Shown one piece after another: positions 16,194 to 63,245 of a DNA stretch of 64,000 bases; the stretch's first letter is position 1; the number at the start of each line of letters is the position of its first letter. Source of the stretch: an uncultured Candidatus Entotheonella sp. (GTDB lineage Bacteria; Tectomicrobia; Entotheonellia; Entotheonellales; Entotheonellaceae). The notes beneath the pieces are model-generated. The model was given only the letters and a program-made list of their open reading frames with translations. It was not told the origin of the DNA and ran no database searches. Made by a program: the position numbers and the translations under genes. Where the stretch lies: contig OZ244252.1 of assembly GCA_965217185.1 (NCBI GenBank), forward strand, positions 3,480,338 through 3,544,337, written 5' to 3'.

Positions 16194-17846
16194 ATGGCTG
16201 CGTTCCAATACCAGGAGTTGTTCGAGCACCACGCCGATACCACGCCGTACCGGCAGCTCACCTCCGATTACGTCTCCACCGCCACGTTTGGCGATCAGGA
16301 GATTTTGCAGGTCGCGCCCAAGGCGCTGACGCTGATCGCCCGCGAAGCCATGGACGACGTGGCCCACCTGCTGCGCAGCAGCCATCTCAAACAGTTGGCC
16401 GCCATCCTCGACGATCCCGAAGCCTCTCCCAATGACCGTTTTGTGGCTCTCGAACTGCTCAAGAACGCCAACATTGCCGCCAGCCGCGTGCTGCCCGGCT
16501 GCCAGGACACCGGCACGGCCATCGCCATCGGCTACAAGGGCGAGAACGTCTTCACCTTCGCCAACGACGCCGAGGCACTGTCGCGGGGCATCTATCAGGC
16601 GTACGACGAGCGTAACCTGCGCTACTCGCAAATGGCGCCGCTCGACATGTACAGCGAGAAGAACACCGGCACCAACCTGCCGGCGCAGGTCGAGCTGTAC
16701 GCCGAGCCGGGCGGCGAATACCGCTTCCTGTTCATTGCCAAGGGCGGCGGGTCGGCGAACAAGACCTTTCTGTACCAGGAAACCAAGGCCCTGCTGAACC
16801 CGGCGTCGCTGCTCAAGTTCATCGCCGAGAAGATCCGCAGCATCGGCACCTCGGCCTGCCCGCCCTACCATCTGGCGCTGGTCGTCGGCGGCCTGTCAGC
16901 GGAGCTGACGCTCAAGACCGTGAAGCTGGCCAGCACGCATTACCTGGACGACCTGCCGACCTCGGGCAACGAGCTGGGGCGCGCTTTCCGGGACATCGAG
17001 CTAGAGCGGAAAATCTTCGACCTGTGCGTGCAAACCGGCATCGGGGCGCAATTCGGCGGCAAGTATTTCGCCCACGACGTGCGTGTCATCCGGCTGCCGC
17101 GCCACGGCGCCTCCTGCCCGGTCGGCCTCGGCGTATCGTGCGCCGCAGACCGGCAGATTCTCGGCAAGATCACCAGGGACGGGGTCTTCCTGGAGCAACT
17201 CGAAACCAACCCGGCGCAGTATCTGCCGGAGGTCATGGAGGACGACCTGAGCGGCGAGGTGGTGGCCGTGGACCTCAACCAGCCGATGCCCGACATTCTC
17301 GCCCGCCTGCGCCAATACCCGGTCGGCACCCGTCTGGGCCTCAGCGGCCCCATGGTGGTGGCGCGCGACATCGCCCACGCCCGGCTCAAGGACCGGCTCG
17401 ACGCCGGCGACGGGCTGCCGCAGTACATCAAGGATCACGTCATTTATTACGCCGGGCCCGCCAAGAAGCCCGACGGCTACGCCTCCGGCTCCTTCGGCCC
17501 TACCACCGCCGGGCGCATGGACGCCTACGTGGACGCCTTCCAGAGCCTCGGCGGCAGCATGGTCATGCTGGCCAAGGGCAACCGCTCCGCACAGGTGAGC
17601 CAAGCCTGCGGCGCCCACGGCGGCTTCTACCTCGGCTCCATCGGCGGCCCTGCCGCCCGCCTCGCCGAGCACAGCATCAAAAACGTCGAAGTGTTGGAGT
17701 ATGAAGATCTCGGCATGGAAGCCATCTGGCGCATTGACGTGGAAGACTTCCCCGCCTTCATCGTCATCAACCACGAGGGCAAGGATTTCTACGGCGAGCT
17801 GGCCGAGAGGTTCCAGCCGCTGGTGCAGTTGGAAGGCGCCGTGTAA
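16194..17846 (+). CDS. fumA: Class I (Fe-S) fumarate hydratase
   Basis: Collinear over its full length with the E. coli FumA-type sequence: [82 protein letters not shown]. 550 aa. Confidence 0.9.
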
Positions 17847-17914: not shown

Positions 17915-18331
17915 ATGAAATCGAGCGTCCCGTCGGTGCTCTGGCCGATACTGCTCATCGGCCTCGGCTTGGTGTTGCCCGGATGCGTGCCAGCGCCGCA
18001 ACCCCTTACGGAACGAAATGCCGCCCTGACCCAGGGGAACATCCAGATGAACCTGGTCGTCGGCCAGACGACCAAGGCCGAGGTGCTGGAGACCTTCGGG
18101 GCGCCGAACATCACCACCCGCGACGGCAGCGGCCGGGAGGTCTGGACCTACCAGAGAGCCGCGCAGGTGTCGCAGTCGTCGAGCCGCTCCGGCTACTGGA
18201 CGGTCATCCTCGGCGGCCAGAGCTCGTCGGCTTCCGGCTTCGAGAGCGGCTCGCGGATGATTACGCTCATCATCAAGTTCGACAGCAGCGACGTGGTGAC
18301 GGATTTCCGCAGCCGGACCTCCGATTTCTAG
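17915..18331 (+). CDS. Lipoprotein, SmpA/OmlA (BamE)-like
   Basis: Lipobox LVLPGC, then GQTTKAEVLETFGAPN...GREVWTY, which resembles the BamE fold signature. Confidence 0.5.
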   Translation: MKSSVPSVLWPILLIGLGLVLPGCVPAPQPLTERNAALTQGNIQMNLVVGQTTKAEVLETFGAPNITTRDGSGREVWTYQRAAQVSQSSSRSGYWTVILGGQSSSASGFESGSRMITLIIKFDSSDVVTDFRSRTSDF

Positions 18332-18350
18332 AGCGTTTCCGTATCAAGCT

Positions 18351-18440
18351 GTAGGTCGGATTAGCGAAGCGTAATCCGACATTCCACTGCGCCGCTTAGG
18401 CTTCTGCTGTCGGGTTATGCCCACGGCTGACCCGACCTAC
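18351..18440. repeat. Pair of REP-like palindromes in opposite orientation (BIME-like)
   Basis: 18351-18380 reads GTAGGTCGGATTA-GCGAAGCG-TAATCCGAC. 18409-18440 reads GTCGGGTTA-N10-TGACCCGAC-CTAC. Confidence 0.6.
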
Positions 18441-18506
18441 TTGAAGCTACCAGTCCACACATGATTCAATTCGATACAGAAATTTTCTAGGTCCGAAGGA
18501 GAGGCC

Positions 18507-19022
18507 ATGACAAGCAACCGCACAATGCTGCCGGTGGCTATCGCTATAGGGCTGGCCTTTCTGGTCGGCTGCACCCCGCCGGGTCCCGTTTTGACGCCGC
18601 TGGAGATCCAGAGCCTGCAGACCCGCGAGTTCGAGCACGACAAGGCCGTCGTGTTCGCCAGTACCATGTCGGTGTTCCAGGACCTTGGCTACATCGTCAA
18701 CAGCGCGGACCTCGCCACCGGACTCATCACCACGGAAAGCCCCGCCACGAGTGACCGCGCGACGTTCCCGGCGCGGCTGACGATCTTGCCGGAGTTGATG
18801 GTGTGGTCGGACGTGACCAGCGTGATGCAAACGAAGGCGACGGCGTTCATCGAACAGATCGGCAACAGGTCCAGGGTACGGCTCAACTTCGTCATCACCC
18901 GGCAGGACTCCAGCGTACACGGCCAGACCAGCCGGCGGGATACGCCGATCCTCGATGCCACTGTTTACCAGAACGCCTTCGAGCGGATCGAGAACGCTAT
19001 TTTCGTGAGGGCCGGCAATTAG
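18507..19022 (+). CDS. Lipoprotein of unknown function
   Basis: Lipobox AFLVGC and a coding-like 171-aa ORF. Confidence 0.6.
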   Translation: MTSNRTMLPVAIAIGLAFLVGCTPPGPVLTPLEIQSLQTREFEHDKAVVFASTMSVFQDLGYIVNSADLATGLITTESPATSDRATFPARLTILPELMVWSDVTSVMQTKATAFIEQIGNRSRVRLNFVITRQDSSVHGQTSRRDTPILDATVYQNAFERIENAIFVRAGN

Positions 19023-19030
19023 GAGGGGGC

Positions 19031-19210
19031 ATGGACTGGAAGACACTCGGCAACATCGCCGCCTTGGTAGGCGTGCTGGTTGCCATCGTGGTGCGGCTCA
19101 AATTTTCCCCAAATTGCAGGAGTTGCACATCGCTTCGGCAACTGCTCGAGGCAGACGTTCGCAGGCCCAGTCTGCTTGAGATTCCCCACCCGGGCACCGA
19201 AAAGGGGTGA
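19031..19210 (+). CDS. Small (59 aa) single-TM protein
   Basis: A strong RBS (AGGAGGGGG) lies just upstream of the ATG. TM segment IAALVGVLVAIVV. Confidence 0.4.
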   Translation: MDWKTLGNIAALVGVLVAIVVRLKFSPNCRSCTSLRQLLEADVRRPSLLEIPHPGTEKG

Positions 19211-19659
19211 TTATGTGTCTTACTCCCCCACCGATTCCGGGTGAGGTTGCCCTATTCGCGGCACTCGGTGGGGCGTTCTGGTAGCCTCCGGTGCTAAATC
19301 GCGCAAGTCCAGTAACGACGCGGGTTTCAGGCGATACGAAAGGGCGTAGGTCTCAAATTGACCAGTTAGGCGGCCCGTCCGTGCGCCAATTTTGTAGATA
19401 AACCAACAATACCCCAGAGGAGTGCTGCCCATCACCCACCGTCCTACGTGACACTTTGTCACCTCGCGCATCAATCATGTCCCCAAGCCGTACCAAACCC
19501 CCTCAGAATCGCTCAATTTCGGACTTACACCCATACGAAAGTTTACGTATAAGCGCTTATCGGAACATGCTGTGACGGACTGCCACTATTCGCCTACCGT
19601 CTAATATCTTTTGTCGTGTAAAGTGGACCGGCGCCAGAGCCGTTAAAGGAGGAAGCGTT

Positions 19660-20616
19660 ATGCCTGAGTCGATACGCGACTATTTGCATAGAGTTCATAG
19701 AGAACCCGTGCCGAGATGGCTCAAAGAGGGTGATTTTTCATTGGACAGGTTTTTTGAATCCCGAACCGTCTACTATCCTGGCGCAGGTCATGACGGAAGC
19801 CCGCTCAAATTATTCAACCGAAGTCATAGCGCGCACTGCTTTGTATGGGTTGACCGGCGTTATGACTTTGATGAATTGAGGAGCAGAGAAGGAACAGGAG
19901 GGTTTGGTCTTCTGAAAGGATATGACGTTTGTCATCAGATAGACATCGTGATCAGGACGAATTATGGCCCCCTAGTTGCTGATCTTCCTTGTCATATGTT
20001 GGTTTATGAACGATGTTCCTACCTTGGTGATGAACACGGTGCAGAAAGGTTGGCCCTTCTTGTTATTTGCGCAGAAGCTCACGCCGCCTATGAGCAGATT
20101 TATCTAGGCCGATTCAGGGGAAATCCACCGTTTGCAGTGGTTCTTCAGGAGTGCATGCGGGGTCCCGACGATCACCCTTTCGGAGGTCCGTCCCCCATGT
20201 ATGAGGCGGCGCGAAAGAACGGACTACCTGGTTTTCTGCTTGTTGGTACCGACAATACGAGCCCATGGCCGGGTTATGTCAGGTTGGAACACTTCCGCCG
20301 CATCCGCGGCGGCATGCCTCTAAGCCGGCGTTGGCTTTATCAACTGCGAGCCGGCAAGCGGCGCGAACACGCTGAGCAGGTACGGCCGCACCTCAAGGTA
20401 GCGGCTCGCTTCCATTTGCCAGAAGACAGGCTTGTCGAGTGGCTGGAGTTCAACGGCGTACCGCCACCAAGTGGAAGCAAATGGTCACTCCGGACCGTCC
20501 GGCGCATAGGCCGTCGCCTCGGACTCTGGCCGTACCGGAGTTCTTTGCGGGAAGGGCGAAATCCTACCCTGAGCGTGCCAGAGGATGACATGCGCCGGAG
20601 GCGTCAAGGAAGATGA
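19660..20616 (+). CDS. Hypothetical 318-aa protein; the C-terminal motif resembles the DNA-binding 'recombinase' motif of large serine recombinases
   Basis: RBS AAGGAGGAAG precedes the start. Codon usage is AT-richer than the flanking genes. The C-terminus has NGVPPPSGSKWSLRTVRRI. I recognise no family for the N-terminal 240 aa. Confidence 0.55.
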   Translation: MPESIRDYLHRVHREPVPRWLKEGDFSLDRFFESRTVYYPGAGHDGSPLKLFNRSHSAHCFVWVDRRYDFDELRSREGTGGFGLLKGYDVCHQIDIVIRTNYGPLVADLPCHMLVYERCSYLGDEHGAERLALLVICAEAHAAYEQIYLGRFRGNPPFAVVLQECMRGPDDHPFGGPSPMYEAARKNGLPGFLLVGTDNTSPWPGYVRLEHFRRIRGGMPLSRRWLYQLRAGKRREHAEQVRPHLKVAARFHLPEDRLVEWLEFNGVPPPSGSKWSLRTVRRIGRRLGLWPYRSSLREGRNPTLSVPEDDMRRRRQGR

Positions 20617-20703
20617 TGACGGGTCCGCCGGGTGCGAAGCGAGTTCAGGTTACGCCCTCTCAGCGAACAATCGGCGCAAGTTGACATAACCCGGGGTTAT
20701 CAG

Positions 20704-21581
20704 GTGCGCCGTGGAAGGCGCCATTCTTCAGCGGGTGCGAATCCCGCCCGGCAACTGTCGTTCCAGCCGGTAGCAGTCGGAGCGGATGATGGAGGCAACG
20801 ACATCGTCTGAAGCACTCCGACGCAACGGGCCGCCAAGGGCGGCTTAGCGACCATGCGGGCCGCAACGTGAGTGAACGTCGAGCAGGCCTCGAAAGCGGT
20901 GATGCGGAAGCCGACCCGCCCTGATAACGGGGAAGGCTGCTACCTGTCGGGAAGCGAGCGACACATGCACCGACGGGTTCCGCCGGGGTATTGGCGGCAG
21001 CACGCATGGAAGAGGGGAATGGACGCAACACGGGAAGCCCTGTCCGGTGGCGTGGCACGCGCCAACCGACAGCCCGCGAGGGTCAGGTCGGGCCGGCAGG
21101 GTGGCGGAGAGGCTTGCAGTACCGGTGAAGCCGGGTAACGCCGGCGGAGGGAAGGGGCCTCATGTGAGGAGCGATGTCCAAAGGGAGAAGGGTCACGGGA
21201 GTGGCTATGCCTATTACCCCGAATGATGACCAGAAAACCCGGCAGCATCACATGCCCAAGTGAAGGAACCGTGCCTTTAGGCGCGGGGTCGTCGAGGCGT
21301 CAACAGGCTCGACGACCCACTGAACGCAACGCGCGCCGCAGGGCGGAAGCTGTGCCGCTCCCGCAAGTCCGATTACCTGCTGCCCGCGGTTGCCAGGGTG
21401 TTCCGTGTGCGAGACGCATGATCCCACTGGAGAGCCGGATGCGGTAAATCCGCCTGTCCGGTTCGGAGAGCGGCGACTGGAAACGGAGCCACGGCGAGGA
21501 GTGAGGCACCGGCATTGCGAAAGCTGCCGGGAACAGCTACCCCCGTTCGCCTACCGCCACCGCGCCAGTCGCCGACTCTAC
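20704..21581 (+). mobile_element. ORF-less group II intron (ribozyme only)
   Basis: 5' GTGCG at 20704. A domain III-like segment reads GGUGAAGCCGGGUAACGCCGGCGGAGGGAAGGGGC. Domain IV is reduced to an 11-bp hairpin (21286-21318). Domain V at 21432-21464 has the AGC triad and a 2-nt bulge. Domain VI pairs 21467-21480 with 21565-21579, has a bulged A at 21575 and ends in AC at 21581. Confidence 0.7.
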
Positions 21582-21698: not shown

Positions 21699-22121
21699 AT
21701 GTTTACTGTTCTCCGACCGCTAATTCTTGCCCTCGCCGCGGTACTGACGTTGTTTGTCACGCAAGTCATTGGCGAAGATGTTGATTTCGACGCTGTATTC
21801 GAGGTCCTTAAGTCTGACCGAGGCAAGCTCGAAGAAATGGACTCGGCTGTGTCGATAATAAAGATGATTCATGCGGCGGAGGCCTGCGAGAAATTCCGTG
21901 TTGCGATTGATGGCTTCGAGATTCACGGTAGCGAAGCCAAACGCAAGATCGATAGCGTGTTCGATTCGGCGTTCGCGGCCATTGATGCCGCCGAAGGCGA
22001 TCACGCACGCAAGGGTGCAAATCTCGCGTTTGACCTGACAAAACGGTTAGGAGCGAATGGAAATAATCCCTGGTACTTCAAAGCAGGCTTTCGTGCCATT
22101 TACGCGAACGTGTGCAATTAG
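21699..22121 (+). CDS. Hypothetical secreted helical protein (140 aa)
   Basis: Signal peptide MFTVLRPLILALAAVLTLFVTQVIG. AT-richer codon usage. Confidence 0.5.
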   Translation: MFTVLRPLILALAAVLTLFVTQVIGEDVDFDAVFEVLKSDRGKLEEMDSAVSIIKMIHAAEACEKFRVAIDGFEIHGSEAKRKIDSVFDSAFAAIDAAEGDHARKGANLAFDLTKRLGANGNNPWYFKAGFRAIYANVCN

Positions 22122-22135
22122 GAAAGGATACACAA

Positions 22136-23644
22136 ATGGAGTTCCAGGACCGCTGTCGCGGCCTCATGGTCGGCATCGCTGTCGGCAACTTGCTCGGCAT
22201 TCCGTGCGAGGGCTGGCCGCGGGAGAAAATCCGCCTCCGCTGGCCTGACGGTGTGCGCGACATCGAAGCGAAAGCCGGCTATCCCGACGATGACGACTTA
22301 GCGCAGGCCGTCATTCTGGCCGCGGCGTGTCACGGGGCGGAAGCCCTGGACGTCGACGACCTCGCCCGGCGGTTCTGGGTGTGGGGTGAGGAAAACGGTC
22401 TTGGCATGGGCCATGCGACAAACATGACACTAACCCGTTACGGTGGTAGACGTCCCAGACAGTACGGGTCCCGTAACATATCTGCACGCCGGCGGCGCTC
22501 GGCGTTGCCGGACTTCCAGCTGGCGCGTGAGCCGGTAGGCTTGCCGGCCCTGGAAGCTTCCCGTGCGGCCTGGGAGGACTCCGGCGGCAAGGCGGCCGGC
22601 AATGGCGCAGTCATGCGCTGTGCGCCTCTGGCCATTCGCTGGCGGCACGACGATGTAGCGCTGGTTCGCAACACCGTCTGCAGCGCCGCGGTCACCCACT
22701 GGGATTGCCGCTGTATCTGGTCCTCGGTGTTTGTGAATCTCGCCATTGCGTCGCTCCTGCGGGAACCGCCGGACGACGCGTTGCGACTGGTTGAGCGCGC
22801 CGAGCGGGCAAGGGAAACGCTTGGCGATGCCTTGGCGCCGTTCGGCGTCGACGCGCCCCCGCGGGCGGCGGTGACGAAAGCGTTGGACGTGGCGGACGTG
22901 ACGGCGCCGGAGGAGATCGGCCTGGATGGTTGGGACATGGGCTACACCCTCAAGGCCATGCAGGTGGCCCTGTGGTGCGCGCGCCAGGCTGTGGACTTCG
23001 AGGAAGCGCTGATCGCCGTCGTCAATGCCGGCGGGGACACTGACACAAACGGCGCCGTGGCGGGTGCGGTGCTTGGTGTACGGTTCGGATTCGACGCGAT
23101 TCCGAGACGTTGGCGCGACCAGGTTGCCAAGTTGCGGGCAGACCGGGTTACGATGGAGGTATGGTCCGACCGTCTGATGGAAACGCGCACTTCGCCGCGG
23201 TCGGCGGAAGGGGCTGGTGAGGTGACAAAGGAAAACCGAGACAGCAGCCGATTGATCCGAGTTTCGGGTGCTGTTTGGAACGCTATCGCTGAGCGAGGAA
23301 AGTTCGGCGAGACGGAGGATGATGTTCTCCGGCGAGTGTTTGGCCTCTTACCGCAGCTCGACCCTGAACAGCCCGTGTCGGGCAAGCGCGGTACCGGACG
23401 ACGAGCACCACGGCGCGCGACAAAACGAATGTCGGTATACGTTGAACGTGGTCGGCTCTTCGTTCAGTTCGCAGATGACGAAAAGAGTTGGTGGGACTTA
23501 CCGGATCCAACGGACAAACGAGCCATTCGGCGCATCCGTGATGAAGCAGTGGCCTTTGCACTCGCTCACGGAGCGACTGATCCAGGGCAGACCAATGCCG
23601 TCAAGAAAGCGCTAACGGACGCCGGGTATCACCTGACTCGATAG
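22136..23644 (+). CDS. ADP-ribosylglycohydrolase (ARH/DraG family) fused to an uncharacterised C-terminal region of about 140 aa
   Basis: ARH motifs: RCRGLMVGIAVGNLLG, YPDDDDLAQA, GNGAVMRCAPLA, GGDTDTNGAVAGAVLG. RBS AGGAAAGGA precedes the ATG at 22136. I recognise no family for residues from about 360 to 502. Confidence 0.8.
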   Translation: MEFQDRCRGLMVGIAVGNLLGIPCEGWPREKIRLRWPDGVRDIEAKAGYPDDDDLAQAVILAAACHGAEALDVDDLARRFWVWGEENGLGMGHATNMTLTRYGGRRPRQYGSRNISARRRRSALPDFQLAREPVGLPALEASRAAWEDSGGKAAGNGAVMRCAPLAIRWRHDDVALVRNTVCSAAVTHWDCRCIWSSVFVNLAIASLLREPPDDALRLVERAERARETLGDALAPFGVDAPPRAAVTKALDVADVTAPEEIGLDGWDMGYTLKAMQVALWCARQAVDFEEALIAVVNAGGDTDTNGAVAGAVLGVRFGFDAIPRRWRDQVAKLRADRVTMEVWSDRLMETRTSPRSAEGAGEVTKENRDSSRLIRVSGAVWNAIAERGKFGETEDDVLRRVFGLLPQLDPEQPVSGKRGTGRRAPRRATKRMSVYVERGRLFVQFADDEKSWWDLPDPTDKRAIRRIRDEAVAFALAHGATDPGQTNAVKKALTDAGYHLTR

Positions 23645-32964: not shown

Positions 32965-33625
32965 GCTTTGGCAGAAACTGCGGAACAAAGCGTACCGAGA
33001 TGGCTACATGGAAGCACAACTTTCCATTGAGGTACCATTCCAGATCCGGGCGCTTCGAAAAGCACGAGGCTGGACCCAAGCACAACTCTCTGAGCGCTGC
33101 GGCATCCCACAGGCACGCATATCATACGTTGAACAACCAGGCCGCGACCCGCTCTCATTGCGGACGCTGTACCGGTTAGCGTCGGCCTTTGACGTCGGGC
33201 TGCTGGTACAGTTTGTCTCCTTCAGTGAGCTGGTGCGCCGTGAAGCTGAATTTAATCCTGAGACTTTCTGTGCCATCAGCTTTAAGGATGACCACTTAGG
33301 AGAAATCGTTCACACATCAGGGCCCATTGGAAAGACCTTTCGCGTTTTCAGTTCCGGGGAAGGCCACATGGAAAAGGCTACGTCTGTCCCTGAACCAGTA
33401 GCGGCACCCTCGTTTCTCAAATCCAAGCATCCAAGCAGAGTAATTGTCTGGCAAACACAGATACAGACCGAAGAGAAAAGACAGACCCGGATCTTCTACA
33501 GTGTCGGGGGGTCGACTCAGCCCACCCGTCCAAGCCTGCGGGACAAATTCTTTCTGACCTCAACAACTCTTTCTGGAGATGAAACGTTATGGCTACAAGA
33601 CGAGCCACACAAGACAATTCTGTAA
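32948..33625 (+). CDS. XRE-family HTH antitoxin with a long C-terminal extension
   Basis: IRALRKARGWTQAQLSERCGIPQARISYVEQ is an XRE HTH. It overlaps the toxin stop by 17 nt. I recognise no family for the 120-aa C-terminal tail. Confidence 0.65.
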   Translation: MRSISKLWQKLRNKAYRDGYMEAQLSIEVPFQIRALRKARGWTQAQLSERCGIPQARISYVEQPGRDPLSLRTLYRLASAFDVGLLVQFVSFSELVRREAEFNPETFCAISFKDDHLGEIVHTSGPIGKTFRVFSSGEGHMEKATSVPEPVAAPSFLKSKHPSRVIVWQTQIQTEEKRQTRIFYSVGGSTQPTRPSLRDKFFLTSTTLSGDETLWLQDEPHKTIL

Positions 33626-33888
33626 ATGTGGGAGAGCTTCCACAGCGCCAGGCAACAGAATATATTTCGACCTATTCGAATCATGTGGAAATAGGGTTGT
33701 CGCCTTGGGACTTCCGGTTTTTGTTTTTCGAAATCGCAGAAGATGAGACCGGAAATCCCATACGCGAAAAGAAAGCCCGCGTGGTCATGTCCCATCAGCA
33801 AGCGGAAGCCTTTTCTCGAGCATTAAACATTGCTGTTGAACGGTGGAAAAAGGAGATTTCCAGTAAGTTGCCGAACCTACCTGAATGA
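33589..33888 (+). CDS. DUF3467-like small protein
   Basis: YSNHVEIGLSPWDFRFLFFEI plus SHQQAEAFSRAL matches my recollection of the DUF3467 pattern. Confidence 0.5.
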   Translation: MATRRATQDNSVNVGELPQRQATEYISTYSNHVEIGLSPWDFRFLFFEIAEDETGNPIREKKARVVMSHQQAEAFSRALNIAVERWKKEISSKLPNLPE

Positions 33889-33983
33889 CACGATCTGGCT
33901 GCTTGACGCTGACCAAAGGCAGTCCAAAAACGGAGGGCCGACACACCAAAAGCCGCCGCGGTAGGCGATAGATTGGCAATGAG

Positions 33984-36900
33984 ATGGACGACCGGTTCTT
34001 CAAGTTCCCGATCCTCAACTCCCCCTACGAATACCCGTCGCGCCACTGGGAGCTCGACGAAAGCGGCCAGCCGACGAACCGCGTCCTCAACACTCGCCGC
34101 CGCGTCTCGTTCATCAGCCCCATCCCCAAGCCGAAGAAACGACGAGGCGCTGCTGCGGAGCAGGCGAGCCTGGTGTTCGACGAAGCGTCCCGGAAGCTCG
34201 CTGACGGCGGCCAGCAGTACGACCTTACGGCCATCATCAATGAGGTGCGCCGGCAGGTCGATGTCTGGCGCAACCTTCCGAGCCCCGACCAGTGGCGAGT
34301 GACCCCGGAAACCGCCCGCCTGCTGCGGCACTGGCGGCACCACCGCTTCAGCGACATCCGCCCCTTCTTCTGCCAGATCGAGGCGGTCGAGACCGCCATC
34401 TGGCTCACCGAGGTGGCGTCGCATGCCGGCCGCGCCGGCAGGGATTTCCTCGACAATCTGGCCAGCGCCAACCGCGACGCCAATCCGGACCTGCCGCGGC
34501 TGGCCCTCAAGCTGGCCACCGGTACCGGCAAAACCACCGTCATGGCGATGCTGATCGCTTGGCAAACCGTCAACGCGGTGCGCCGGCCGCAGAGTTCCCG
34601 GTTCACCCGCAGCTTCCTGGTGGTGACCCCGGGCATCACCATCAAAGACCGTCTGCGGGTGCTGCAGCCCAACGACCCGGACAGCTATTACCGCGGCCGG
34701 GAACTGGTCCCCACTGACATGCTCGCCGACCTGGACAAGGCCAGGATCGTCATCACCAACTATCACGCCTTCAAGCTGCGCGATCGCCTGGAGTTGTCCA
34801 AGGGCGGCCGCGCCCTGCTGCAGGGCCGCGGCGAGCCGCTAGCCGCCCAGGAAACCGAGGGCCAGATGCTGCAGCGGGTGATGCCGGAACTGATGGGCGC
34901 CAAGGGCATCCTGGTGCTCAACGACGAGGCGCATCACTGCTACCGCGAGAAGCCGGGCGAGGACGACGAGGGCGACCTGAAAGGCGACGACCGCAAGGAA
35001 GCCGAAAGGAACCGCGAGGCGGCGCGGCTATGGATATCCGGGCTGGAAACGGTGCAGCGAAAGCTCGGCCTCAACCGCGTCTTCGACCTCTCGGCAACGC
35101 CGTTCTTCCTGCGCGGCTCCGGCTACGCCGAGGGCACGCTGTTCCCGTGGACGATGAGCGATTTCTCCCTCATGGACGCCATCGAGTGCGGCATCGTCAA
35201 GCTGCCGCGCGTGCCGGTGGCCGACAACATCCCCGGCAGCGACATGCCGAAATTCCGCAATCTCTGGGAGCACATCGGCAGGCGGATGCCCAGGAAGGGA
35301 CGCGGCAAGGCCACCGGCCTCGACCCGCTCAGCCTGCCGGTCGAACTGCAAACCGCCCTGCAAGCTCTCTACGGCCACTACGAAAAGCAATTCGAGTTGT
35401 GGCAGGAGGCGGGCATCGAGGTGCCACCCTGCTTCATCATCGTCTGCAACAACACCTCCACCTCGAAGCTGGTGTACGACTACATTTCGGGCTTCCTGCA
35501 CGACAGTCCCGACGGTTCCAAGACGCTGGTGCCGGGCCGCCTAGCGCTGTTCCGCAACTACCACGAGGACGGCACGCCGATCGGCCGCCCGCGCACGCTG
35601 CTCATCGACAGCGAGCAGCTCGAATCCGGGGAGGGGCTGGACAAGAATTTCCGGGACCTCGCCACCAACGAGATCGAGCGCTTCCGCCGCGAGATCGTCG
35701 CTCGCACGGGCGACCGCCGGCAGGCCGAAAACCTCTCCGACCACGACCTGTTGCGCGAGGTCATGAACACCGTGGGCAAGGCCGGTCGGCTTGGCGGCTC
35801 GATCCGCTGCGTCGTCTCCGTCTCCATGCTGACGGAGGGCTGGGACACCAATACCGTCACGCACGTTCTCGGCGTTCGCGCCTTCGGCACCCAGCTGCTG
35901 TGCGAGCAGGTGGTTGGCCGCGCCCTGCGCCGCCAGTCCTATGACCTGAACGAAAAAGGCCGCTTCGACGTGGAATACGCCGACGTTCTCGGCGTCCCCT
36001 TCGACTTCACGGCGAAACCGGTGGTCGCCCCACCGCAACCGCCGCGCGCGACCGTTCAGGTCATGGCCGTCACCCCGGACCGCGACGCCTGTGAGATTCG
36101 CTTCCCGCGCGTCGCCGGCTACCGCGTCGAGCTGCCGGACGAGCGCCTCAGCGCCGCGTTCAACGACGACTCGACCTTCGTCCTCACGCCCGACCTGATC
36201 GGCGCCTCGGTCACCCGCAACGAGGGGATCATCGGCGAGGGAATCGACCTCAACCTGGTGCATACCGACACCCTGCGGCGCTCGACCTTGCTTTACAACC
36301 TGACCCAGCGGCTGCTGGTGACCAAGTGGCGCGATCCGAACGAGGAACCCAAGCTGCACCTCTTCGGCCAGCTCAAGCGCATCACCGCCCAATGGCTGGA
36401 CAACCACCTCGTCTGCAAGGGCGGCACCTACCCGGCGCAACTTATGTACCAGGAACTGGCCGACACGGCCTGCGAGCGCATCACCAACGCCATCACGCGA
36501 GCGGCAATGGACAGCCGCCCGGTCAAGGCGGTGCTCGATCCCTACAACCCCGCCGGCTCCACGCGGCACGTTCACTTCACCACCTCCAAGACCCTCCGCC
36601 GCCAAACGGACGCGCGCCGTTGCCACGTCAATTGGGTCATCCTCGACAGCGATTGGGAAGCGGAGTTCTGCCGCGTCGCCGAATCCCATCCGCGCGTCCG
36701 TGCCTACGTCAAGAACCAGGGCCTCGGCCTGGAGGTGCCGTACCGCAGCGGCTCCACCACCCGAACCTATATCCCCGACTTCATCGTGCTCCTGGACGAC
36801 GGCCGCGACGACCCGTTGCATCTCATCGTCGAGATCAAGGGCTACCGGGGAGAGGACGCCAAGGCGAAGAAGGAGACGATGGAGACCTATTGGGTTCCGG

Positions 36901-39482: not shown

Positions 39483-40582
39483 ATGGCTCGTAAGGCCAAA
39501 AGCCGAAAACAGATCGAAACCCTGCGGCACCAGGACGCCTCGCGCAAGAACATCCCCACCGCCGAGTACCAGGCGGTGATGGCGGCGGACGACCGCAGCC
39601 CCATCGAGGTCGCCTACGGTCGCCGCAACCGCGACCTCGACCCACAGCTCGTCTGGCGCGGCAAGGACGCGCAGGATTGGTCCGACCTCGTGGTGCAGGC
39701 GCCGCCGCTGTTCATCCAGGAAAAGGTTCACCCCAAGATGCTGATCGACGACCTGCGGCGCCGCAGCGAGGAAGCAGGGGCCGGGAAAGCCGACGACGCA
39801 TCCGGCTTCCAGACCGATCTCTTCGCCGACTTCAACGGCCTGCCGAGCGCCGACGCCCGCACCGAGTTCTACCAGCACGACGCCAACTGGTCGAACCGTA
39901 TGATTCTGGGCGACAGCCTGCAGGTGATGGCCTCGCTGGCGGAGCGCGAGGGGCTGCGCGGCAAGGTGCAGTGCATCTACGTCGATCCGCCCTACGGCAT
40001 CAAGTTCAACTCCAACTTCCAGTGGTCCACCACCAGCCGCGACGTGAAGGACGGCAACGCCGCCCACATCACCCGCGAGCCGGAGCAGGTGAAGGCGTTC
40101 CGGGATACGTGGCGGGACGGGATTCACTCGTACCTGACGTACCTACGGGATCGGCTGACCATAGCGCGGGATTTGCTGACGGAGAGCGGCAGCATCTTCG
40201 TGCAGATCGGGGACGAGAACGTGCACCGGGTGCGGGCGCTGATGGACGAGGTTTTTGGGGAGGAGAACTTTATCGCGGAAATCGCGTTCCAAAAGACGTC
40301 TTCGACATCTTCAGAATCACTGTCAGGTGTTTTTGATCTACTTCTCTGGTTCGGCAAATCGATGACTTGGAAATATCGACCGCTGTTTCAAATTAAAGAG
40401 CTTGGCGGTACGGGAACAACTCAATATTCCTTTGCTGAAAATGCCGATGGTTTAAGGCGAACACTTGCCGAATGGGATGAGTTAAGCGTCAACAGGAAAT
40501 TTCTCAAAGTTTTTTCTCATGGTGATATCACGAGCCAAAGACCAGCGCAGGGAGAAGATGTTCGTAAATTCACTTACGAAGG
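39483..40582 (+). pseudogene. mod: Type III (beta-class) N6-adenine DNA methyltransferase Mod, 5' fragment, interrupted by an IS
   Basis: Motif IV in CIYVDPPYGIKFNSNF. The reading frame runs into the IS and stops at 40641-40643. Confidence 0.85.
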
Positions 40583-42076
40583 AGCCACTTGCAAAACTCC
40601 GCTAGTTTGGCCTCGGAGCGGTTGTCATGAGACCGTACGGTGAATCATTTGCCGTCGGTGGTTCCAATTGCCACGAATTCAGCCATGGCGGTGCCAAGTT
40701 CCGGCTCCCGTCTTGCGATGCGGACGCAACTCTCCCCCCTGCGTACAGGACAGCAGCGTGTGCCGGGATGGAGGAAACGGGGCCGCGAGACCAGCTTCAG
40801 GTCACCAAGCGCATCAACTGATCAACCGTGAGCGCCACAATCCCGAACATCAGATGACACAGCACCTTGGCATGGCCGCGCACGCGCACGCTGCGACCTC
40901 CGAATTCATCCTTGAGGCGACCATTGACGCGCTCGACGGTCGAGCGTTCGTGGTAACGTCTCTCCTCAGACAGGACCAACCCACAGGCACGCCGTGCCTG
41001 CCTCTCCTGCCGCAGCGCCTGCTTGCGCGCGCCGCTGCGGGGGTTGACGTCGATGATCGCAACATGACCCAGGGCGCGGCTGTGGGCGCGGATTTCCGGG
41101 GCATCGTAGGCGCTGTCCATCAGGTCATACAGGTTGCGGACTCGCTCCGCCGTCAGGGTCGCCAGCGGGATGGCGACTTGGCTGTCGTGCAGCGACGCCG
41201 AGGTAAGCAGGCAACTGACCGGGATGGCGCCGTCGGCCGCGTCAATATGCAACTTGTAGCCGCTCCATGACGTCTGATAGCCTTTGGCGTCGCGCTTGAC
41301 GCCAATGTCACAGGCGTACGGCAAGTCGGCGAGCATCTCCGGCAGGGTCATGTTGCGCTGGCGCTCCAGACGGCGCGGCTCCGTGGGGCGCTCCTCGCCC
41401 TTGCGCGGACGCCCGCGCCGCCGCTTCGGCTTGGCCGGCTGCGGCGCCTTCGGGGTCGGTCTCTCGCGCCCTTCAATCGCCGTCGAATCGCGTGAAATAT
41501 GGCCTGCCAGACGCTCACCCTGGGTGCGTTTGATCAGCGCCTCGTGCAGGTGGCTCGGCAAGGCGCTGTCGGCAAATTCGGCAAAGGCACGTGAAAACGT
41601 CGCCTCGCTCGGAATGTGCTTGACGCTACGCCAGCCGCACAACCGGCGCAGGGTGCTGTCGTGGCGCAGACGATCAAGCAACATCCGGGTGCTAACCAGC
41701 GCGAAGACGGCCTTGGCGATGAAGGCGCGGGCTAAGGCCGCGCGGTCGCTTGGCGGACAGCCGCGACGCCGGTGCTGGTACGGCAGCAGCGTTTCCACCC
41801 GCACCCATTCGAGCACCATGACGAAGCGCTGATGGCGTTCCCCCAGCGCCCCGATCGTTTCCTCAAGCTGCGGGAACAGCAGCGCTTGAAAGCAAGACCA
41901 GTAACTCGATAGTATCTCACGTAAGGCCATTGGGGTCGTTCCTCCTGATTCGGTTGTTTGACAACTCAACAGAATCAGAAAGCGGCCCCAATGTCCACCA
42001 ATCAGCCCCAGAGCCTGCCCCGTGCTTGACACGGAGAAAGAAAATCCCACTCGTACACGCAATTCTGCAAGTGGCT
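40583..42076 (-). mobile_element. Insertion sequence (IS4/IS5-superfamily DDE transposase), 1494 bp, with 6-bp target duplication CGAAGG
   Basis: Terminal inverted repeats AGCCACTTGCA (40583-40593) and TGCAAGTGGCT (42066-42076). CGAAGG occurs at 40577-40582 and again at 42077-42082. Confidence 0.85.
40797..41930 (-). CDS. DDE transposase (DUF772-like N-terminus plus DDE_Tnp_1-like core)
   Basis: MALREILSSYW..., PPSDRAALARAFIAKAVFAL, HISRDSTAIEG, LMDSAYDAPEI, RSTVERVNGRLKDEFG. 377 aa from the ATG at 41930. Confidence 0.8.
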   Translation of the reverse strand: MALREILSSYWSCFQALLFPQLEETIGALGERHQRFVMVLEWVRVETLLPYQHRRRGCPPSDRAALARAFIAKAVFALVSTRMLLDRLRHDSTLRRLCGWRSVKHIPSEATFSRAFAEFADSALPSHLHEALIKRTQGERLAGHISRDSTAIEGRERPTPKAPQPAKPKRRRGRPRKGEERPTEPRRLERQRNMTLPEMLADLPYACDIGVKRDAKGYQTSWSGYKLHIDAADGAIPVSCLLTSASLHDSQVAIPLATLTAERVRNLYDLMDSAYDAPEIRAHSRALGHVAIIDVNPRSGARKQALRQERQARRACGLVLSEERRYHERSTVERVNGRLKDEFGGRSVRVRGHAKVLCHLMFGIVALTVDQLMRLVT

Positions 42077-43927: not shown

Positions 43928-44376
43928 TGTTCATGGCGTCGACGTGTTCCACCCCAATACCGGCGAAATCCGCAGCGACAACGCCGACGGCATCGCCTGC
44001 TGGTTCGTCGACACCGATTACAACGAAGAGAGCTTCTTCGTCCGCCACGCCTATTTCCTCGGCGCCAGCGACCCGTACAGGGCACTCAAGACCACACTAA
44101 AAGCCGAAATCAACGAGGAGGCGTGGACGACGCTGCGCAGCGATACGTCACGGCCGTTCGCCAAGCCGCAGTCCGGCCGCATTGCCGTGAAGGTGATCAA
44201 CCATCTGGGGGATGAGGTGATGAAGGTGTTCCGGGTGTGAGGGCAGTTGGATGCCCAAATATAGGAAAATTAGCCGAGTTTATCGTCTTTTTATAAACTG
44301 GCATAACTTATCTATAAACGGTCCGAAATCGCTCACGTAAAGGGGCTAAGGTCAACGCGACAGCGGGGGATTTATC

Positions 44377-45912
44377 ATGGATCGACCCAATGACTCGGCG
44401 GCCACGGAAACGCGGCCCTCGATGTCTCCTGACGTTCGGATTTCGGTAACGAATTTCGGACCCATCACAGAGGGCACGATAGACCTGCGGCCGTTGACGG
44501 TATTCGTTGGCCCAAGCAATACGGGCAAGACCTATCTCGCAGTTCTGATCTACGCTCTTTACCGGGTTTTGGGTGGACTTCCTCGGGTCCCTGTCATGCA
44601 TCGGCATCGTTACGCTTTTGGACAAGCTCCCCGACCCGACCAATTGACAGACGAAGCAGTGCAGCAAGAAGAACTCCGGGATGTGCTGGAAAAAATGTCG
44701 AACTCAGAACAAGCATTCAGATTCTGCGACTTGCCCGAAAGTATGCGCGGCGTAGCACAGGTCGAACTCAGCGATCCGGACCGACTGGCGGCTGGTCTAG
44801 AGACCGAACTCCGTCGCTGTTTCGACCTTGATTCGATTTCCGATCTGGTTCGATTCTCCGGGCGCCCCGACGGCCTACAGTTTTCGCTGGCTGTCAGCGA
44901 GGAAAGCCAAGCTCTCTGGCGGTTCTGCATGGGTGTTTCTCAAACGGGTATCACGGCAAACGGACAAATCACCGAAGGCATGGTCCTCCTTCCCGAAGGC
45001 TGGTCGCACCAGAAGGAATGGAGACCTAGCTTTCTACCACCCCATTGGAGTCTGCCTGAAGCACTTTGGTCTACGACCAACGCCGCTAGAGATCAGGGCG
45101 AAACCCATTATCTGCCGGCCGCACGCGGCGGCATCATGCAGAGTCATCGCGTTATTGCAAGTTTGCTCCCAAAGCTTTTCACCAGGGCAAGGGTCGAACC
45201 TTTCGAGATTCCGACGTTTTCCGGCGTAATGGCTGATTTCATGGAGCGGCTCATCCTTTACCGAGGGGAGCGAAAGCGGCAGAACCCATTGAGAGAAATT
45301 GCCGATGCCTTTGAACGCGAGGTGCTTGCCGGGCGGATAGAGATTCGGAGGTTCTCAGCGAGTGGGTATCCAGAGTTCGTTTACCAACCCCAGGAAACAG
45401 AAGAGGACATTCGTCTGAGTCGTGCTTCGTCTATGGTCTCCGAACTCGCTCCCGTCGTGCCATTCCTTCGGGGCACCATCAACCGCGGCGACATGTTCAT
45501 CATGGAGGAACCCGAAGCCCATCTCCATCCCGCCGCCCAAACCCAGATAGCAGTGACTTTGGCGCGTATAGTGCGTGCCGGAGTGCGGGTCGTCGTCACG
45601 ACGCACAGCGACTGGTTGCTCCAGGAAATCGGCAACCTAATGCGGGAAGGGGAGTTGGAAGAACAGACTGGCAAGCCTACGAGCGAAGAAGGTCTTCCGA
45701 GTTCGCTGCGCCCCAGCGAAGTGGGCATCTGGCTGTTCCGTAAGGATGAAGACTCAGCGGGCTCCATAGTGAAAGAAATCCCGTTCAACCGCAGTGAAGG
45801 CGTCGAACCCGAGGAATATGAAGACGTTGCCGAGGAACTGTACAACCGTTCAGCGAACCTGCAGAACCGGCTCGAAGAAATAGCAGGGGATGCGGAACGC
45901 GACGATGAGTGA
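44377..45912 (+). CDS. ABC/SMC-like ATPase of the AAA_15/AAA_21 type (Septu PtuA / PARIS AriA-like architecture)
   Basis: Walker A VFVGPSNTGKTY. Walker B plus D-loop MFIMEEPEAHLHPAAQ. H-loop VVTTHSDWLL. Long helical insert between them. 511 aa. Confidence 0.75.
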   Translation: MDRPNDSAATETRPSMSPDVRISVTNFGPITEGTIDLRPLTVFVGPSNTGKTYLAVLIYALYRVLGGLPRVPVMHRHRYAFGQAPRPDQLTDEAVQQEELRDVLEKMSNSEQAFRFCDLPESMRGVAQVELSDPDRLAAGLETELRRCFDLDSISDLVRFSGRPDGLQFSLAVSEESQALWRFCMGVSQTGITANGQITEGMVLLPEGWSHQKEWRPSFLPPHWSLPEALWSTTNAARDQGETHYLPAARGGIMQSHRVIASLLPKLFTRARVEPFEIPTFSGVMADFMERLILYRGERKRQNPLREIADAFEREVLAGRIEIRRFSASGYPEFVYQPQETEEDIRLSRASSMVSELAPVVPFLRGTINRGDMFIMEEPEAHLHPAAQTQIAVTLARIVRAGVRVVVTTHSDWLLQEIGNLMREGELEEQTGKPTSEEGLPSSLRPSEVGIWLFRKDEDSAGSIVKEIPFNRSEGVEPEEYEDVAEELYNRSANLQNRLEEIAGDAERDDE

Positions 45913-46391
45913 GGTTCTCAACAAGCTCCGGTCACAAGTAGGCGCAGCAAATCTCAGCAATTCGTGCAGCCGGGACGGGTGCCAAGTTGATATCACGGAT
46001 GTGCCACGCAGCCGCGTCATCATAGACATGGACAAGGCGCTCTCAGCTTCCACTACGACAGGCAAACGATGTGATTACGTCCTGTTCTTCATGGATGCTG
46101 AAAACACGCTCGTAACGGTTCCCTTGGAACTCAAGAGCGGTGGTGTCGACTCAATATCGGAGGTCTGTGAGCAATTGCAACAGGGCGCAACATACGCCGA
46201 AGACCTTGCAAGGGAAGATTCCGAACCTATCTGTCGCCCGCTCCTGTTCCATGGCAAGGGCATCCACAAAGCGCAACGCCCTAAATTGAATCGCGCCAAG
46301 GTTCGTTTCCGCGGCAGGAGGCGGCAGGAGATTGACCATTGACACGACACGCTGTGGCGAGAATCTCATTCGTGCCCTGAAGGAGAAGTGA
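45905..46391 (+). pseudogene. Small PD-(D/E)xK-like putative nuclease, C-terminus frameshifted by a 10-bp tandem duplication
   Basis: The ATG at 45905 overlaps the ATPase stop (ATGAGTGA). GKRCDYVLFF...(about 15 aa)...VPLELKSG fits a D...ExK core. The current frame stops at 46340-46342. Without one repeat unit the ORF reads ...KVRFRGRRLTIDTTRCGENLIRALKEK* and ends at 46389-46391. Confidence 0.5.
46311..46330 (+). repeat. Perfect 10-bp tandem duplication GCGGCAGGAG GCGGCAGGAG
   Basis: Read directly from the sequence. Confidence 0.95.
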
Positions 46392-46459
46392 GCCCCCTGC
46401 CTACACATTGAGGCTGCGCATCCTTACTTCACCGGTAACGTCGAAAGGGGACGAATCCC

Positions 46460-46672
46460 ATGCGAAAACAGACCATCCAATACACCTCGCCCATCGACGC
46501 GCTGATTGCGGTGACCAAACAGTTGAGCATCTACGAAAGCCAGCACAAGATGGATTCGAAAGAGTTCTTTGACCAGTACAGCCGGGGCCAACTGTCCGAT
46601 GACGCAGTGTTCATCGATTGGGCCAACGATTACCGCCACTATCTGCACCTCCGTCGCAAGGAGCAACCATGA
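46460..46672 (+). CDS. Small 70-aa protein, first gene of a three-gene hicBA-containing operon
   Basis: Coding-like sequence with an ATGA overlap onto the hicB start. I recognise no family. Confidence 0.5.
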   Translation: MRKQTIQYTSPIDALIAVTKQLSIYESQHKMDSKEFFDQYSRGQLSDDAVFIDWANDYRHYLHLRRKEQP

Positions 46673-46872
46673 AGCTAAAGGTAATCATCCACGAAGCGGA
46701 AGAGGGTGGTTATTGGGCCGAGGTACCCGCCATCCCCGGATGCGCCACGCAGGGCGAGTCATTTGAAGAACTGCTTGGCAATCTCTACGAAGCCGTCGAA
46801 GGTTGCCTGTCGGTGGATGTTCGAGACATACCCACTTCAGATACCGACAGGGTTATCGAAATTGCTGTATGA
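46669..46872 (+). CDS. hicB: HicB-family antitoxin (UPF0150)
   Basis: MKLKVIIHEAEEGGYWAEVPAIPGCATQGESFEELLGNLYEAVEGCL. Confidence 0.8.
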   Translation: MKLKVIIHEAEEGGYWAEVPAIPGCATQGESFEELLGNLYEAVEGCLSVDVRDIPTSDTDRVIEIAV

Positions 46873-47030
46873 AGGCCGCTAGCGGAAAGCGATTTCGCCG
46901 ATTGCTGGAATCAAAAGGATGGCGCCTAATGCGCATCAGCGGCAGCCACCACATCTACGCCAAGGCGCATGCACCAATCCGCATATCAGTTCCGATTCAC
47001 GGCAATACGCCCCTCAAAATCGGCATGTAG
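46869..47030 (+). CDS. hicA: HicA-family toxin, probably truncated by an in-frame TAG
   Basis: MKAASGKRFRRLLESKGWRLMRISGSHHIYAKAHAPIRISVPIHGNTPLKIGM, then TAG at 47028-47030. The same frame continues RHFMKLADN to a TGA at 47058-47060, which looks like the normal HicA C-terminal helix. Confidence 0.7.
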   Translation: MKAASGKRFRRLLESKGWRLMRISGSHHIYAKAHAPIRISVPIHGNTPLKIGM

Positions 47031-57296: not shown

Positions 57297-58520
57297 TTAC
57301 AAGGCGGCCAGTTCCCGCGTCTCGTCAGCAAATGCCGCGGGATCGGTCACCGGACGCCGCTGCGCGATACGCTCACGGGCAGCCTGCAGAAGGTCAGGCT
57401 TGCCGTTGATGAAGAGGGCCGCTTGCAGGAAACCATCGGCGAAGTAGAACTGCGCGAACCCGGGTTCCAGGCTCAGGGGGCCGCGCCGCACGCACTGCTG
57501 GCGGACGCTCATATCGCCGATGACATCGATGTGCAGGGCGCCCATGTGGGAGAAGAAATAGGGCAGTTCCGTGTAGGCAAGATGGGCGCCGGCCATGTTC
57601 GCGCCAGCCGTGCGGCCGTGCTGCAGCGCCACGTCGTAGTGTTCAACGCGCAGATGGCGCCCCAGGGTCGGGCTGTAATAGCGCGCGATGTCACCGGCGG
57701 CGTAAATCGCATCCGCCGCCTCAAGGTATTCGTTCACCACCACACCGTTATCGACGTTGAGCCCGGCAGCAGCAGCCAGTTCGGTGTTTGGGGCAATACC
57801 CACCCCGATGACCACCACGTCCGCTTCGATATCTTCGCCGCCGTTCGTGACCACCCGCTCGACACGGCCCTGCGCGCCGACGAATTGCGCCGCTGCCGTA
57901 TCGATGCGCAGCGTGACGCCCTGTTGGCTCAGGAACGAAGTGATGAAGGCGCTGGTTTCGGCGTCGAGCACCAGACTCAACGGCGCCAGGGTGACTTCGA
58001 TCAGGGTCGTCTGCAAACCCGATTGGGCGAACGCGGTTGCCACCTCGCAACCAATAAAACCGCCGCCTACCACGACCGCCCGCCGCGCATTGGCCATGGC
58101 GGCTCGCAAGGCGTCAGAATCCTCAAGGGTGCGAAGATAATAGATGCCGTCCAGGTCGGCACCCGTTATCGACAACCGGCGCGGACGCCCTCCGGTGGCC
58201 AGCAACAGCTTCTCAAATCCCACCTCGCTGCCATCGTCGAGCGTGACGGTGCGCGTGCCCACGTCCACCGCCGTCACCGACTGCCCCAGAAATTGTTCCA
58301 CCCGGTGGCGCTGGTAGAATCGCGGCCGGCGGAGGAATACGTCCTCGCGCTCCATACGGCCCAGCAAGTAGTCCTTCGATAACGGCACACGATCATAGGG
58401 CAGGTGGATCTCAGTACCGATCAACACTAAACGCCCCGTCTTGTCGCGGCGACGAATGGCGTCAATGGCCGCGGTGGCTGCCAAGCCGCCGCCGATGATG
58501 ACGTACGGAATCCGTTCCAC
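57297..58520 (-). CDS. FAD/NAD(P)-dependent pyridine nucleotide-disulfide oxidoreductase (ferredoxin-reductase/AIF-like)
   Basis: YVIIGGGLAATAA (FAD GxGxxA) and AVVVGGGFIGCEVA (NAD). A GTG start at 58520 with an upstream AAGGA RBS is inferred. Confidence 0.8.
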   Translation of the reverse strand: MERIPYVIIGGGLAATAAIDAIRRRDKTGRLVLIGTEIHLPYDRVPLSKDYLLGRMEREDVFLRRPRFYQRHRVEQFLGQSVTAVDVGTRTVTLDDGSEVGFEKLLLATGGRPRRLSITGADLDGIYYLRTLEDSDALRAAMANARRAVVVGGGFIGCEVATAFAQSGLQTTLIEVTLAPLSLVLDAETSAFITSFLSQQGVTLRIDTAAAQFVGAQGRVERVVTNGGEDIEADVVVIGVGIAPNTELAAAAGLNVDNGVVVNEYLEAADAIYAAGDIARYYSPTLGRHLRVEHYDVALQHGRTAGANMAGAHLAYTELPYFFSHMGALHIDVIGDMSVRQQCVRRGPLSLEPGFAQFYFADGFLQAALFINGKPDLLQAARERIAQRRPVTDPAAFADETRELAAL

Positions 58521-58649
58521 AGGGACGTTCCTTTGCACTGGAGTGTTGGAATCGCTCGACGAGGTGAGCCTGTACCATACGCAGCAGGCCGAAAACGTGT
58601 CAATATCGCCCCTGCAAATTCGCCCGTTCAAGTCTGTCTGGACATGCTA

Positions 58650-60547: not shown

Positions 60548-60572
60548 AGTAGGGGGTCACGGACAAGCAGAC

Positions 60573-61253: not shown

Positions 61254-61256
61254 TCT

Positions 61257-62057: not shown

Positions 62058-62092
62058 CCCGCCACCCGGACACCTCCTGAAAAGGGGCCACC

Positions 62093-62440: not shown

Positions 62441-62472
62441 GACCAACCCGCCAAAATAACTTTGCCCGCCTA

Positions 62473-63230: not shown

Positions 63231-63245
63231 CGCGAGATGCGGATC

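Follow-up and report, generated by a model that had tools for sequence, protein, structure and literature searches.

An 878-nt group II intron without an open reading frame (ORF) for an intron-encoded protein (IEP) was found in a 64,000-nt stretch of DNA from an uncultured Candidatus Entotheonella sp. (assembly GCA_965217185.1, contig OZ244252.1, positions 3,480,338 to 3,544,337), the whole of which is called the window below. The element, located at 20704-21581 on the + strand, was confirmed to be a genuine and well-preserved ORF-less intron, an uncommon but already known kind of element, and for the annotation of the window it is an ordinary mobile-element insertion in an intergenic spacer. 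It is probably a non-autonomous intron of IIB-like, IIE/IIF type, whose intact ribozyme would be folded, spliced and mobilised by an IEP acting in trans. A first-pass annotation made from the letters of the DNA had described at this place a group II intron that has no ORF but all hallmarks of the ribozyme. This description was supported by Rfam matches, covarying folds and the failure to find an IEP, and the 5′ GUGCG, domain V, the domain VI helix, the terminal AC, an 11-bp hairpin and a palindrome listed in it are all present in the sequence where it had placed them.

The covariance-model search that the first-pass annotation had called for was run over the whole 64 kb at Rfam gathering thresholds. 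Exactly two families were matched, both on the + strand: RF02003 (group-II-D1D4-4) at 20729-20871 (91 bits, E = 9e-19) and RF00029 (domains V and VI) at 21430-21581 (42.8 bits compared to a gathering score of 40, E = 4.5e-5). The element starts with GUGCG at 20704 and ends with AC at 21580-21581, which agrees with 5′ GUGYG and 3′ AY termini. A blastn search of plasmid sequences showed ~100 records with similarity from 20704 to ~21162 (~71% identity), and ~20 plasmid introns matched 94% of the length of the 3′ block 21430-21581 (74-79% identity). Related loci outside the window are given L numbers here. An ORF-less intron of 725 nt from a Bradyrhizobium plasmid (L001) could be aligned from GUGCG to CUCUAC, and the similarity stopped at both ends. 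Among the metagenome contigs that carry the identical upstream gene, one stops at 20701, one breaks off within the intron, and in one (L010) the sequence becomes unrelated directly after 21581. Contigs that end at the intron edges (L013, L014), together with a mosaic contig (L012), are typical of a repeat. The limits 20704 and 21581 are thus fixed by the plasmid homology, the limits of L001 and the flank switch in L010. The first-pass annotation had left the 5′ boundary uncertain; position 20704 was upheld, and the GTGCG pentamers at 20632 and 20736 were ruled out as 5′ ends by the homology limits. The element and its exon junctions are as follows:

20704..21581, + strand: complete ORF-less group II intron, 878 nt, from 5′ GUGCG to 3′ CUCUAC (RF02003, RF00029 and homology limits)
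20703/21582: predicted ligated-exon junction, ...GGGGUUAUCAG joined to AAGUUGGGG
Predicted exon target sequence: ACCCGGGGUUAUCAG on the 5′ exon side, followed by A as the first 3′-exon nucleotide

All six domains of the ribozyme could be placed. An RNAalifold consensus of domains I to III (DI-DIII) from eight relatives contained 120 pairs, and compensatory changes were seen at 57 of these. The underlying alignment (A2) has DI in columns 6-365, DII columns 366-445 and DIII columns 449-501; the domain limits in the window were mapped from A2 and are approximate. DIII was the most conserved block among the relatives. The pairing between alpha and alpha′ was shown to covary in the relatives (UGCUC/GAGCA, UCGCUC/GAGCGA, GUCGUUC/GAACGAC and UUUCGUUC/GAACGAAG). 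The following parts were located:

20709..21054, + strand: domain I, closing helix and subdomains (RNAalifold, RF02003; approximate)
20757..20763, + strand: alpha (GUCGUUC), pairs with alpha′ (covariation)
20956..20962, + strand: alpha′ (GAGCGAC), in the terminal loop of the DId3 stem-loop (A2 columns 249-309; covariation with alpha)
21055..21161, + strand: domains II and III (covarying helices; approximate)
21432..21464, + strand: domain V, GAGCCGGAU-GCGG-UAAAU-CCGC-CU-GUCCGGUUC, with the AGC triad at 21433-35, the CU bulge and the 5-nt loop UAAAU (RF00029)
21467..21579, + strand: domain VI, extended distally by a long structured part; basal helix 21467-21480 / 21565-21579

In the consensus fold of domain V (DV), which has a lower helix of 9 bp, every pair was either conserved or compensated. 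Together with the RF00029 score this substantiates the domain V with AGC triad and 2-nt bulge of the first-pass annotation. Its pairing of domain VI (DVI) with a bulged A21575 also held. This candidate branch-point A, 7 nt from the 3′ end, was invariant in 9/9 sequences, and four pairs of the basal helix had both sides changed in the consensus fold of the nine. The 84 nt between the strands of the basal helix (21481-21564) had been regarded as an unusual insertion. They proved instead to be structured and common to the whole lineage: GGAAAC.GGAG and CCACCGCGCC are conserved as internal loops, the distal hairpin covaries, and the single-sequence fold of DVI gave z = -3.6. The extension is carried by ~20 plasmid introns and by at least 120 metagenome loci, which were collected as matches to a pattern across the DV/DVI junction and include full-length relatives.

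Whether DI-DIII can be folded with compatible exon- and intron-binding sites (EBS and IBS) had been set as a check by the first-pass annotation; besides the covarying fold, EBS1, EBS2 and EBS3 were all located:

20922..20928, + strand: EBS1 (CUGAUAA), hairpin loop, 7/7 Watson-Crick pairs with IBS1; caps a conserved hairpin (A2 columns 220-223/234-237)
20697..20703, + strand: IBS1 (UUAUCAG), last 7 nt of the 5′ exon, perfect complement of EBS1
20897..20900, + strand: EBS2 (CGGU), internal loop on the 5′ side of EBS1 (covaries in the family with exon positions ~-15 to -10)
20689..20692, + strand: IBS2 (ACCC), 5′ exon, pairs with the EBS2 loop; belongs to the palindrome's 5′ arm
20991, + strand: EBS3 (U), pairs with A21582
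21582, + strand: IBS3 (A), first nucleotide of the 3′ exon, pairs with U20991

The EBS1 loop was found to track the exon in the relatives, with 7/7 pairs in L007, L050, L059 and L111 and 6/7 in L002, L004 and L114. EBS2 and IBS2 covary within the family (GGAC/GUCC, GGUC/GACC, GGGU/ACCC, CGGGU/GCCCG and GAGC/GCUC), and in 19/22 introns the base in the EBS3 column can form a Watson-Crick pair with the first 3′-exon base. An alternative EBS2 at A2 columns 371-382, which complements exon positions -14..-8 in three introns, was rejected as it lies inside a covarying DII stem. The window intron sits at a site that fits its EBS1 (7 bp) and EBS3, which is what arrival via reverse splicing would produce. 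The 15-nt palindrome AUAACCC-G-GGGUUAU at 20686-20700, with 3 nt between it and the 5′ splice site, coincides with the predicted IBS2 plus the start of the predicted IBS1.

A full-length intron of 1983 nt in a metagenome contig (L097) was observed to have a 3′ exon that repeats its 5′ exon, cacctg(t)gataacccaattttgac. This intron lies within a tandem direct repeat, and a second copy of its own target is thereby adjacent.

Domain IV (DIV) was shown to be larger than described in the first-pass annotation, which had found in it nothing but a perfect 11-bp hairpin. The hairpin is there, but DIV spans ~265 nt and contains in addition a DIVa-like structure, codon remnants of an IEP at both ends and a filler:

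~21164..21429, + strand: domain IV without ORF, ~265 nt, made up of DIVa, IEP codon remnants, filler and the DIV stem's 3′ strand
~21164-21262, + strand: DIVa-like structure, predicted IEP-binding site (alignment and co-fold with relatives)
~21245-21272, + strand: IEP N-terminal codon remnants, ASHAQVKE compared to ALHAKAKAE of relatives
~21275-21400, + strand: DIV filler, ~140 nt, contains the 11-bp hairpin (21286-96/21308-18)
Ending at 21421, + strand: IEP C-terminal codon remnants and stop, ..RVFRVRDA* compared to ..RDFPWAKA* of relatives

In an alignment and fold of DIVa from 16 members (the window copy and 15 others, both ORF-less and full-length), the helices of the window copy were kept via compensatory changes. 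The statement that no reverse transcriptase ORF is present in the intron stands: tblastn searches with 4 and then 13 related IEPs returned noise alone, both within the element and across the whole 64 kb. The longest internal ORF (74 aa, 21223-21447) was rejected as a gene; it showed no Pfam or NCBIfam match and is disturbed by indels and a frameshift in the sister copies. A plasmid blastn search with 21150-21432 gave no match that would show the origin of the filler.

Sister copies of the window intron were detected in ENA metagenome contigs of samples ERZ10779909 and ERZ10779950, whose 5′ flank is that of the window:

L010, 11923-12933: intron copy ~6% diverged, followed by unrelated DNA
L012, 11818-12172: mosaic intron copy that breaks in mid-DVI

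In the 5′ flank shared by the window and L010, 1 of 1704 positions differed, whereas within the 878-nt intron there were 57 substitutions and 8 indel columns (~6.5% diverged). As both copies share the peculiar DIV, they diverged after the loss of the ORF. Nine of the 12 changed pairs were still paired, including four double compensatory changes, two of which are adjacent in DV. In an arm of the DIV hairpin, three substitutions were present in L010/L012, and all of them keep the pairing as G-U on the + strand. This comparison argues for continued selection on the RNA after ORF loss and for the presence of at least two paralogous copies. The 3′ junction of the L010 copy to different DNA is intron-precise; the junctions in L010 and L012 arose either when intron copies recombined or as chimeras of the assembly at the repeat. 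The 3′ flank of L010 was seen to contain a PDDEXK_4 gene and a fragment of a Tn3-family DDE transposase.

Full-length members of the lineage, which encode an IEP that is a reverse transcriptase/maturase, were 1982-1991 nt in size (~1.98 kb), and ORF-less forms 725-880 nt. The state upstream of DV was scored in 100 metagenome loci with enough upstream sequence, among the matches listed:

67 loci: IEP coding sequence directly upstream of DV (full-length)
20 loci: DIII within 105-280 nt of DV (ORF-less)
13 loci: neither (5′-truncated)

Among the matches listed, ORF-less forms thus make up ~20/87 of the decidable loci. That ORF-less introns are uncommon, as the first-pass annotation had stated, is correct for bacteria in general (PMC4424553), but not in this lineage, where about one in 4-5 of the sampled copies is ORF-less. 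In a tree of the ribozyme parts, the ORF-less introns were scattered among the full-length ones, L001 for instance being 94% identical to the full-length L069, and this interspersion indicates that ORF loss has been recurrent. The window copy and L010 form a deep branch of their own. In the DIV of two ~725-nt forms, L001 (3453-3578) and L026, ALHAKAKA is fused to ..KA-stop via a shared GAAGGCG, which suggests a deletion of the ORF interior by microhomology or a template switch of the reverse transcriptase as a recurrent route of ORF loss. The 13 loci whose DV-DVI has, in the 700 nt before it, neither DI-DIII nor an IEP coding sequence (L039, L045, L048, L086, L087, L091, L094, L106, L112, L115, L117, L128 and L129) are 5′-truncated or internally deleted copies, as would be expected from abortive reverse transcription.

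An exact 37-mer search of genome contigs identified no full-length intron, but a fragment and a partial copy in two metagenome-assembled genomes (MAGs):

L015, 2116-2293: Vicinamibacterales chromosome OY282382.1, 178-nt 5′ fragment
L016, 2309-2691: Tectimicrobiota MAG, 93% identical copy interrupted by the contig end

The presence of the same sub-lineage (90-93% identity) in MAGs of two phyla supports horizontal spread. An exact 34-mer search of JGI metagenomes and viral contigs gave no match. In L099 (~2657-2690, match orientation), an ORF-less copy ends with CGACTCTAC, and 22 nt further on a second intron 5′ end (GTGCGCCGTGAATG...) was observed, i.e., two introns of the lineage are present in tandem.

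Based on the ribozyme features and on the IEPs of the relatives, the intron was filed as IIB-like and IIE/IIF-like, without a split between E and F. The idiosyncrasies reported for IIE/IIF introns include a 5-nt DV loop in place of the 4-nt zeta′ loop and alpha′ in the DId3 terminal loop (PMC3753933). The lineage agrees with these bacterial class E/F introns (Toro 2002; Simon 2008; Nagy et al. 2013, PMC3753933) in both respects: the DV loop, not a GNRA tetraloop, was 5 nt in 86/86 members scored, and alpha′ lies within the terminal loop of the DId3 stem-loop. It also shares with them the IIB-like EBS1, EBS2 and EBS3 and a compact ribozyme, ~606 nt without DIV compared to the 450-700 nt reported for IIE/IIF (PMC3753933). 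At 400-485 aa, the IEPs of the relatives leave no room for an endonuclease domain; in their C-terminal tails the class D motif LX3AX3PXLF[V/A]HW (PMC4615759) is missing, so that class D was rejected. Two differences from the IIE/IIF introns were noted. The window copy has no IEP, and the IEP phylogeny that defines the classes is therefore not directly applicable to it; and the ~110-nt structured DVI of the lineage does not appear among the features described in PMC3753933.

As to how such an intron is maintained, transcription could take place by read-through from the upstream gene, and a maturase would aid folding and splicing; this protein, encoded by a related full-length intron at another place in the genome, would act in trans and dock on the retained DIVa. 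It may also occasionally mobilise the intron: EBS1, EBS2 and EBS3 would direct the reverse splicing into DNA, and reverse transcription would follow. Mobilisation in trans would explain the second copy with a different 3′ flank. Bacterial ORF-less introns are reported to co-reside nearly always with related IEP-encoding introns (PMC4424553), and splicing in trans by an IEP has been demonstrated in a cyanobacterium (PMC4424553; PMC12584367). Several points weigh against a non-autonomous intron served in trans. No cognate IEP was found within the 64 kb (Rfam, tblastn), the nearest full-length relative found (e.g., L023) was ~75% identical in the ribozyme, and the EBS2 of the window copy (CGGU) makes just 3 bp with ACCC, compared to 4 bp for GGGU in the L010 sister copy. 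Evidence for the second copy comes from metagenome contigs alone, which may be chimeric at the repeat, also with regard to its apparent 5′ exon; besides, its EBS3 (U) mismatches the apparent 3′ exon (C). The existence of the IEP, transcription and splicing are parts of this reading that we infer from sequence.

The lack of an IEP in the window, the distance to the nearest full-length relative and the weakened EBS2 would also fit an immobile relic, i.e., a full-length insertion that lost its ORF and was inherited vertically as neutral intergenic DNA with no IEP acting in trans. The intergenic position, where an unspliced intron need not damage any ORF, and the frequency of 5′-truncated or fragmentary copies in the lineage (L015; the 13 of 100 loci above) point in the same direction. 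Yet the catalytic and tertiary-contact motifs are all intact, the retained and compensated pairs in the comparison with L010 and the G-U-preserving changes in the hairpin are not expected from neutral decay, and the second copy has an intron-precise junction to different DNA; a relic is for these reasons considered unlikely. Somewhat less probable still is a protein-independent ribozyme of the HYER type, which would fold by itself, splice by hydrolysis and cleave or invade DNA or RNA targets complementary to EBS1/EBS2 with no maturase, possibly aided by the long DVI or the extra structure in DIV. The intron is compact and ORF-less with at least two copies, class IIE introns are reported to self-splice in vitro exclusively by hydrolysis (PMC3753933), and ORF-less IIC HYERs are known as protein-free hydrolytic endonucleases (10.1101/2024.08.31.610620; PMC12990946). 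On the other hand, DIVa is kept with compensatory changes in every ORF-less member examined, as protein dependence predicts, the bulged branch A is conserved, and the features are IIE/IIF-like and not IIC; the long DVI is found equally in IEP-encoding relatives, which shows that it is no adaptation to protein-free life. It is equally doubtful that the window element and its sister copies are a self-sufficient, proliferating, non-IIC HYER-like ribozyme, of a kind that the lineage would repeatedly spawn by precise excision of the IEP ORF. If so, such a ribozyme could splice by hydrolysis, cut or invade DNA free of a maturase and read a target of ~12 nt (7 nt by EBS1, 4-5 nt by EBS2 and 1 nt by EBS3).

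The first-pass annotation had also likened the element to introns that target hairpins, with the palindrome recognised as a DNA stem-loop in the manner of class IIC. Its location directly upstream from the 5′ splice site is what suggested this, but the idea is effectively refuted. The palindrome overlaps IBS2 and IBS1 (the latter 7 nt long) and would be read by base pairing; no terminator was predicted at it, and no terminator-like T-run follows it. More than 20 relatives occupy unrelated, non-palindromic sites. An EBS2 is present and covaries, and the 9-bp lower helix of DV, the RF02003 match and the IIE/IIF features likewise speak against class IIC. The reading preferred here remains that of a non-autonomous intron dependent on an IEP in trans.

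In the window, the intron lies in an intergenic spacer and is co-oriented with the flanking + strand ORFs (19660-20616 and 21699-22121). The four + strand ORFs around it (17915-20616 and 21699-22121; 138, 171, 318 and 140 aa) showed no Pfam or NCBIfam match, and the GC content was 0.526 at 19001-20000 compared to ~0.62-0.66 nearby. This ORF cluster, which may be an acquired island, is bordered by two genes:

16194-17846: fumarate hydratase
22112-23644: ADP-ribosylglycohydrolase

A GC content of 0.52-0.59 was also seen at 33001-34000, 40001-41000, 44001-47000 and 58001-64000, in a genome of ~0.64 GC.

Like the ORF-less introns already known from bacteria and archaea (Dai & Zimmerly 2003; Simon et al. 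2008; Trichodesmium dnaN; PMC4424553, PMC12584367), the window intron has a complete ribozyme, a DIV without reverse transcriptase ORF and a presumed dependence on a related IEP in trans. It differs from the cyanobacterial ones, which interrupt housekeeping genes, in being intergenic. A co-resident IEP-encoding relative is the rule in the published cases, whereas here the comparison covers the 64 kb alone; and while such introns are called rare in bacteria (PMC4424553), they account for ~20/87 loci in this lineage, among the matches listed. That about a fifth to a quarter of the sampled copies have independently shed the ORF, with DIVa always kept, suggests that non-autonomous "parasites of the parasite" arise repeatedly along this route. 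What modest interest is left in the element comes from how often and how repeatedly the lineage has lost the ORF, and from the evidence of selection afterwards.

Engineered delta-ORF introns supplied with an IEP in trans (EcKTE56.groEL delta-ORF with an RT donor, PMC12584367) have the same layout, with DIVa kept and the ORF removed from DIV, but the window intron is natural and carries ~140 nt of extra structured filler in DIV. With the HYERs (Liu et al. 2024, per 10.1101/2024.08.31.610620, PMC12990946) it shares an ORF-less ribozyme of ~600-900 nt, more than one copy and an intact core. The HYERs belong to class IIC, whereas the window intron is IIE/IIF-like, is known here from its sequence, and keeps DIVa and the bulged branch A. 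It also adds EBS2 and EBS3 to a 7-nt EBS1, which gives a potential recognition of ~12 nt compared to 6-7 nt. A specificity of 6-7 nt has been cited as the main limitation of HYER tools (10.1101/2024.08.31.610620). Should any member of the lineage be protein-independent, minimal ribozymes with EBS1, EBS2 and EBS3 would recognise a longer target than the HYER tools derived from IIC introns.

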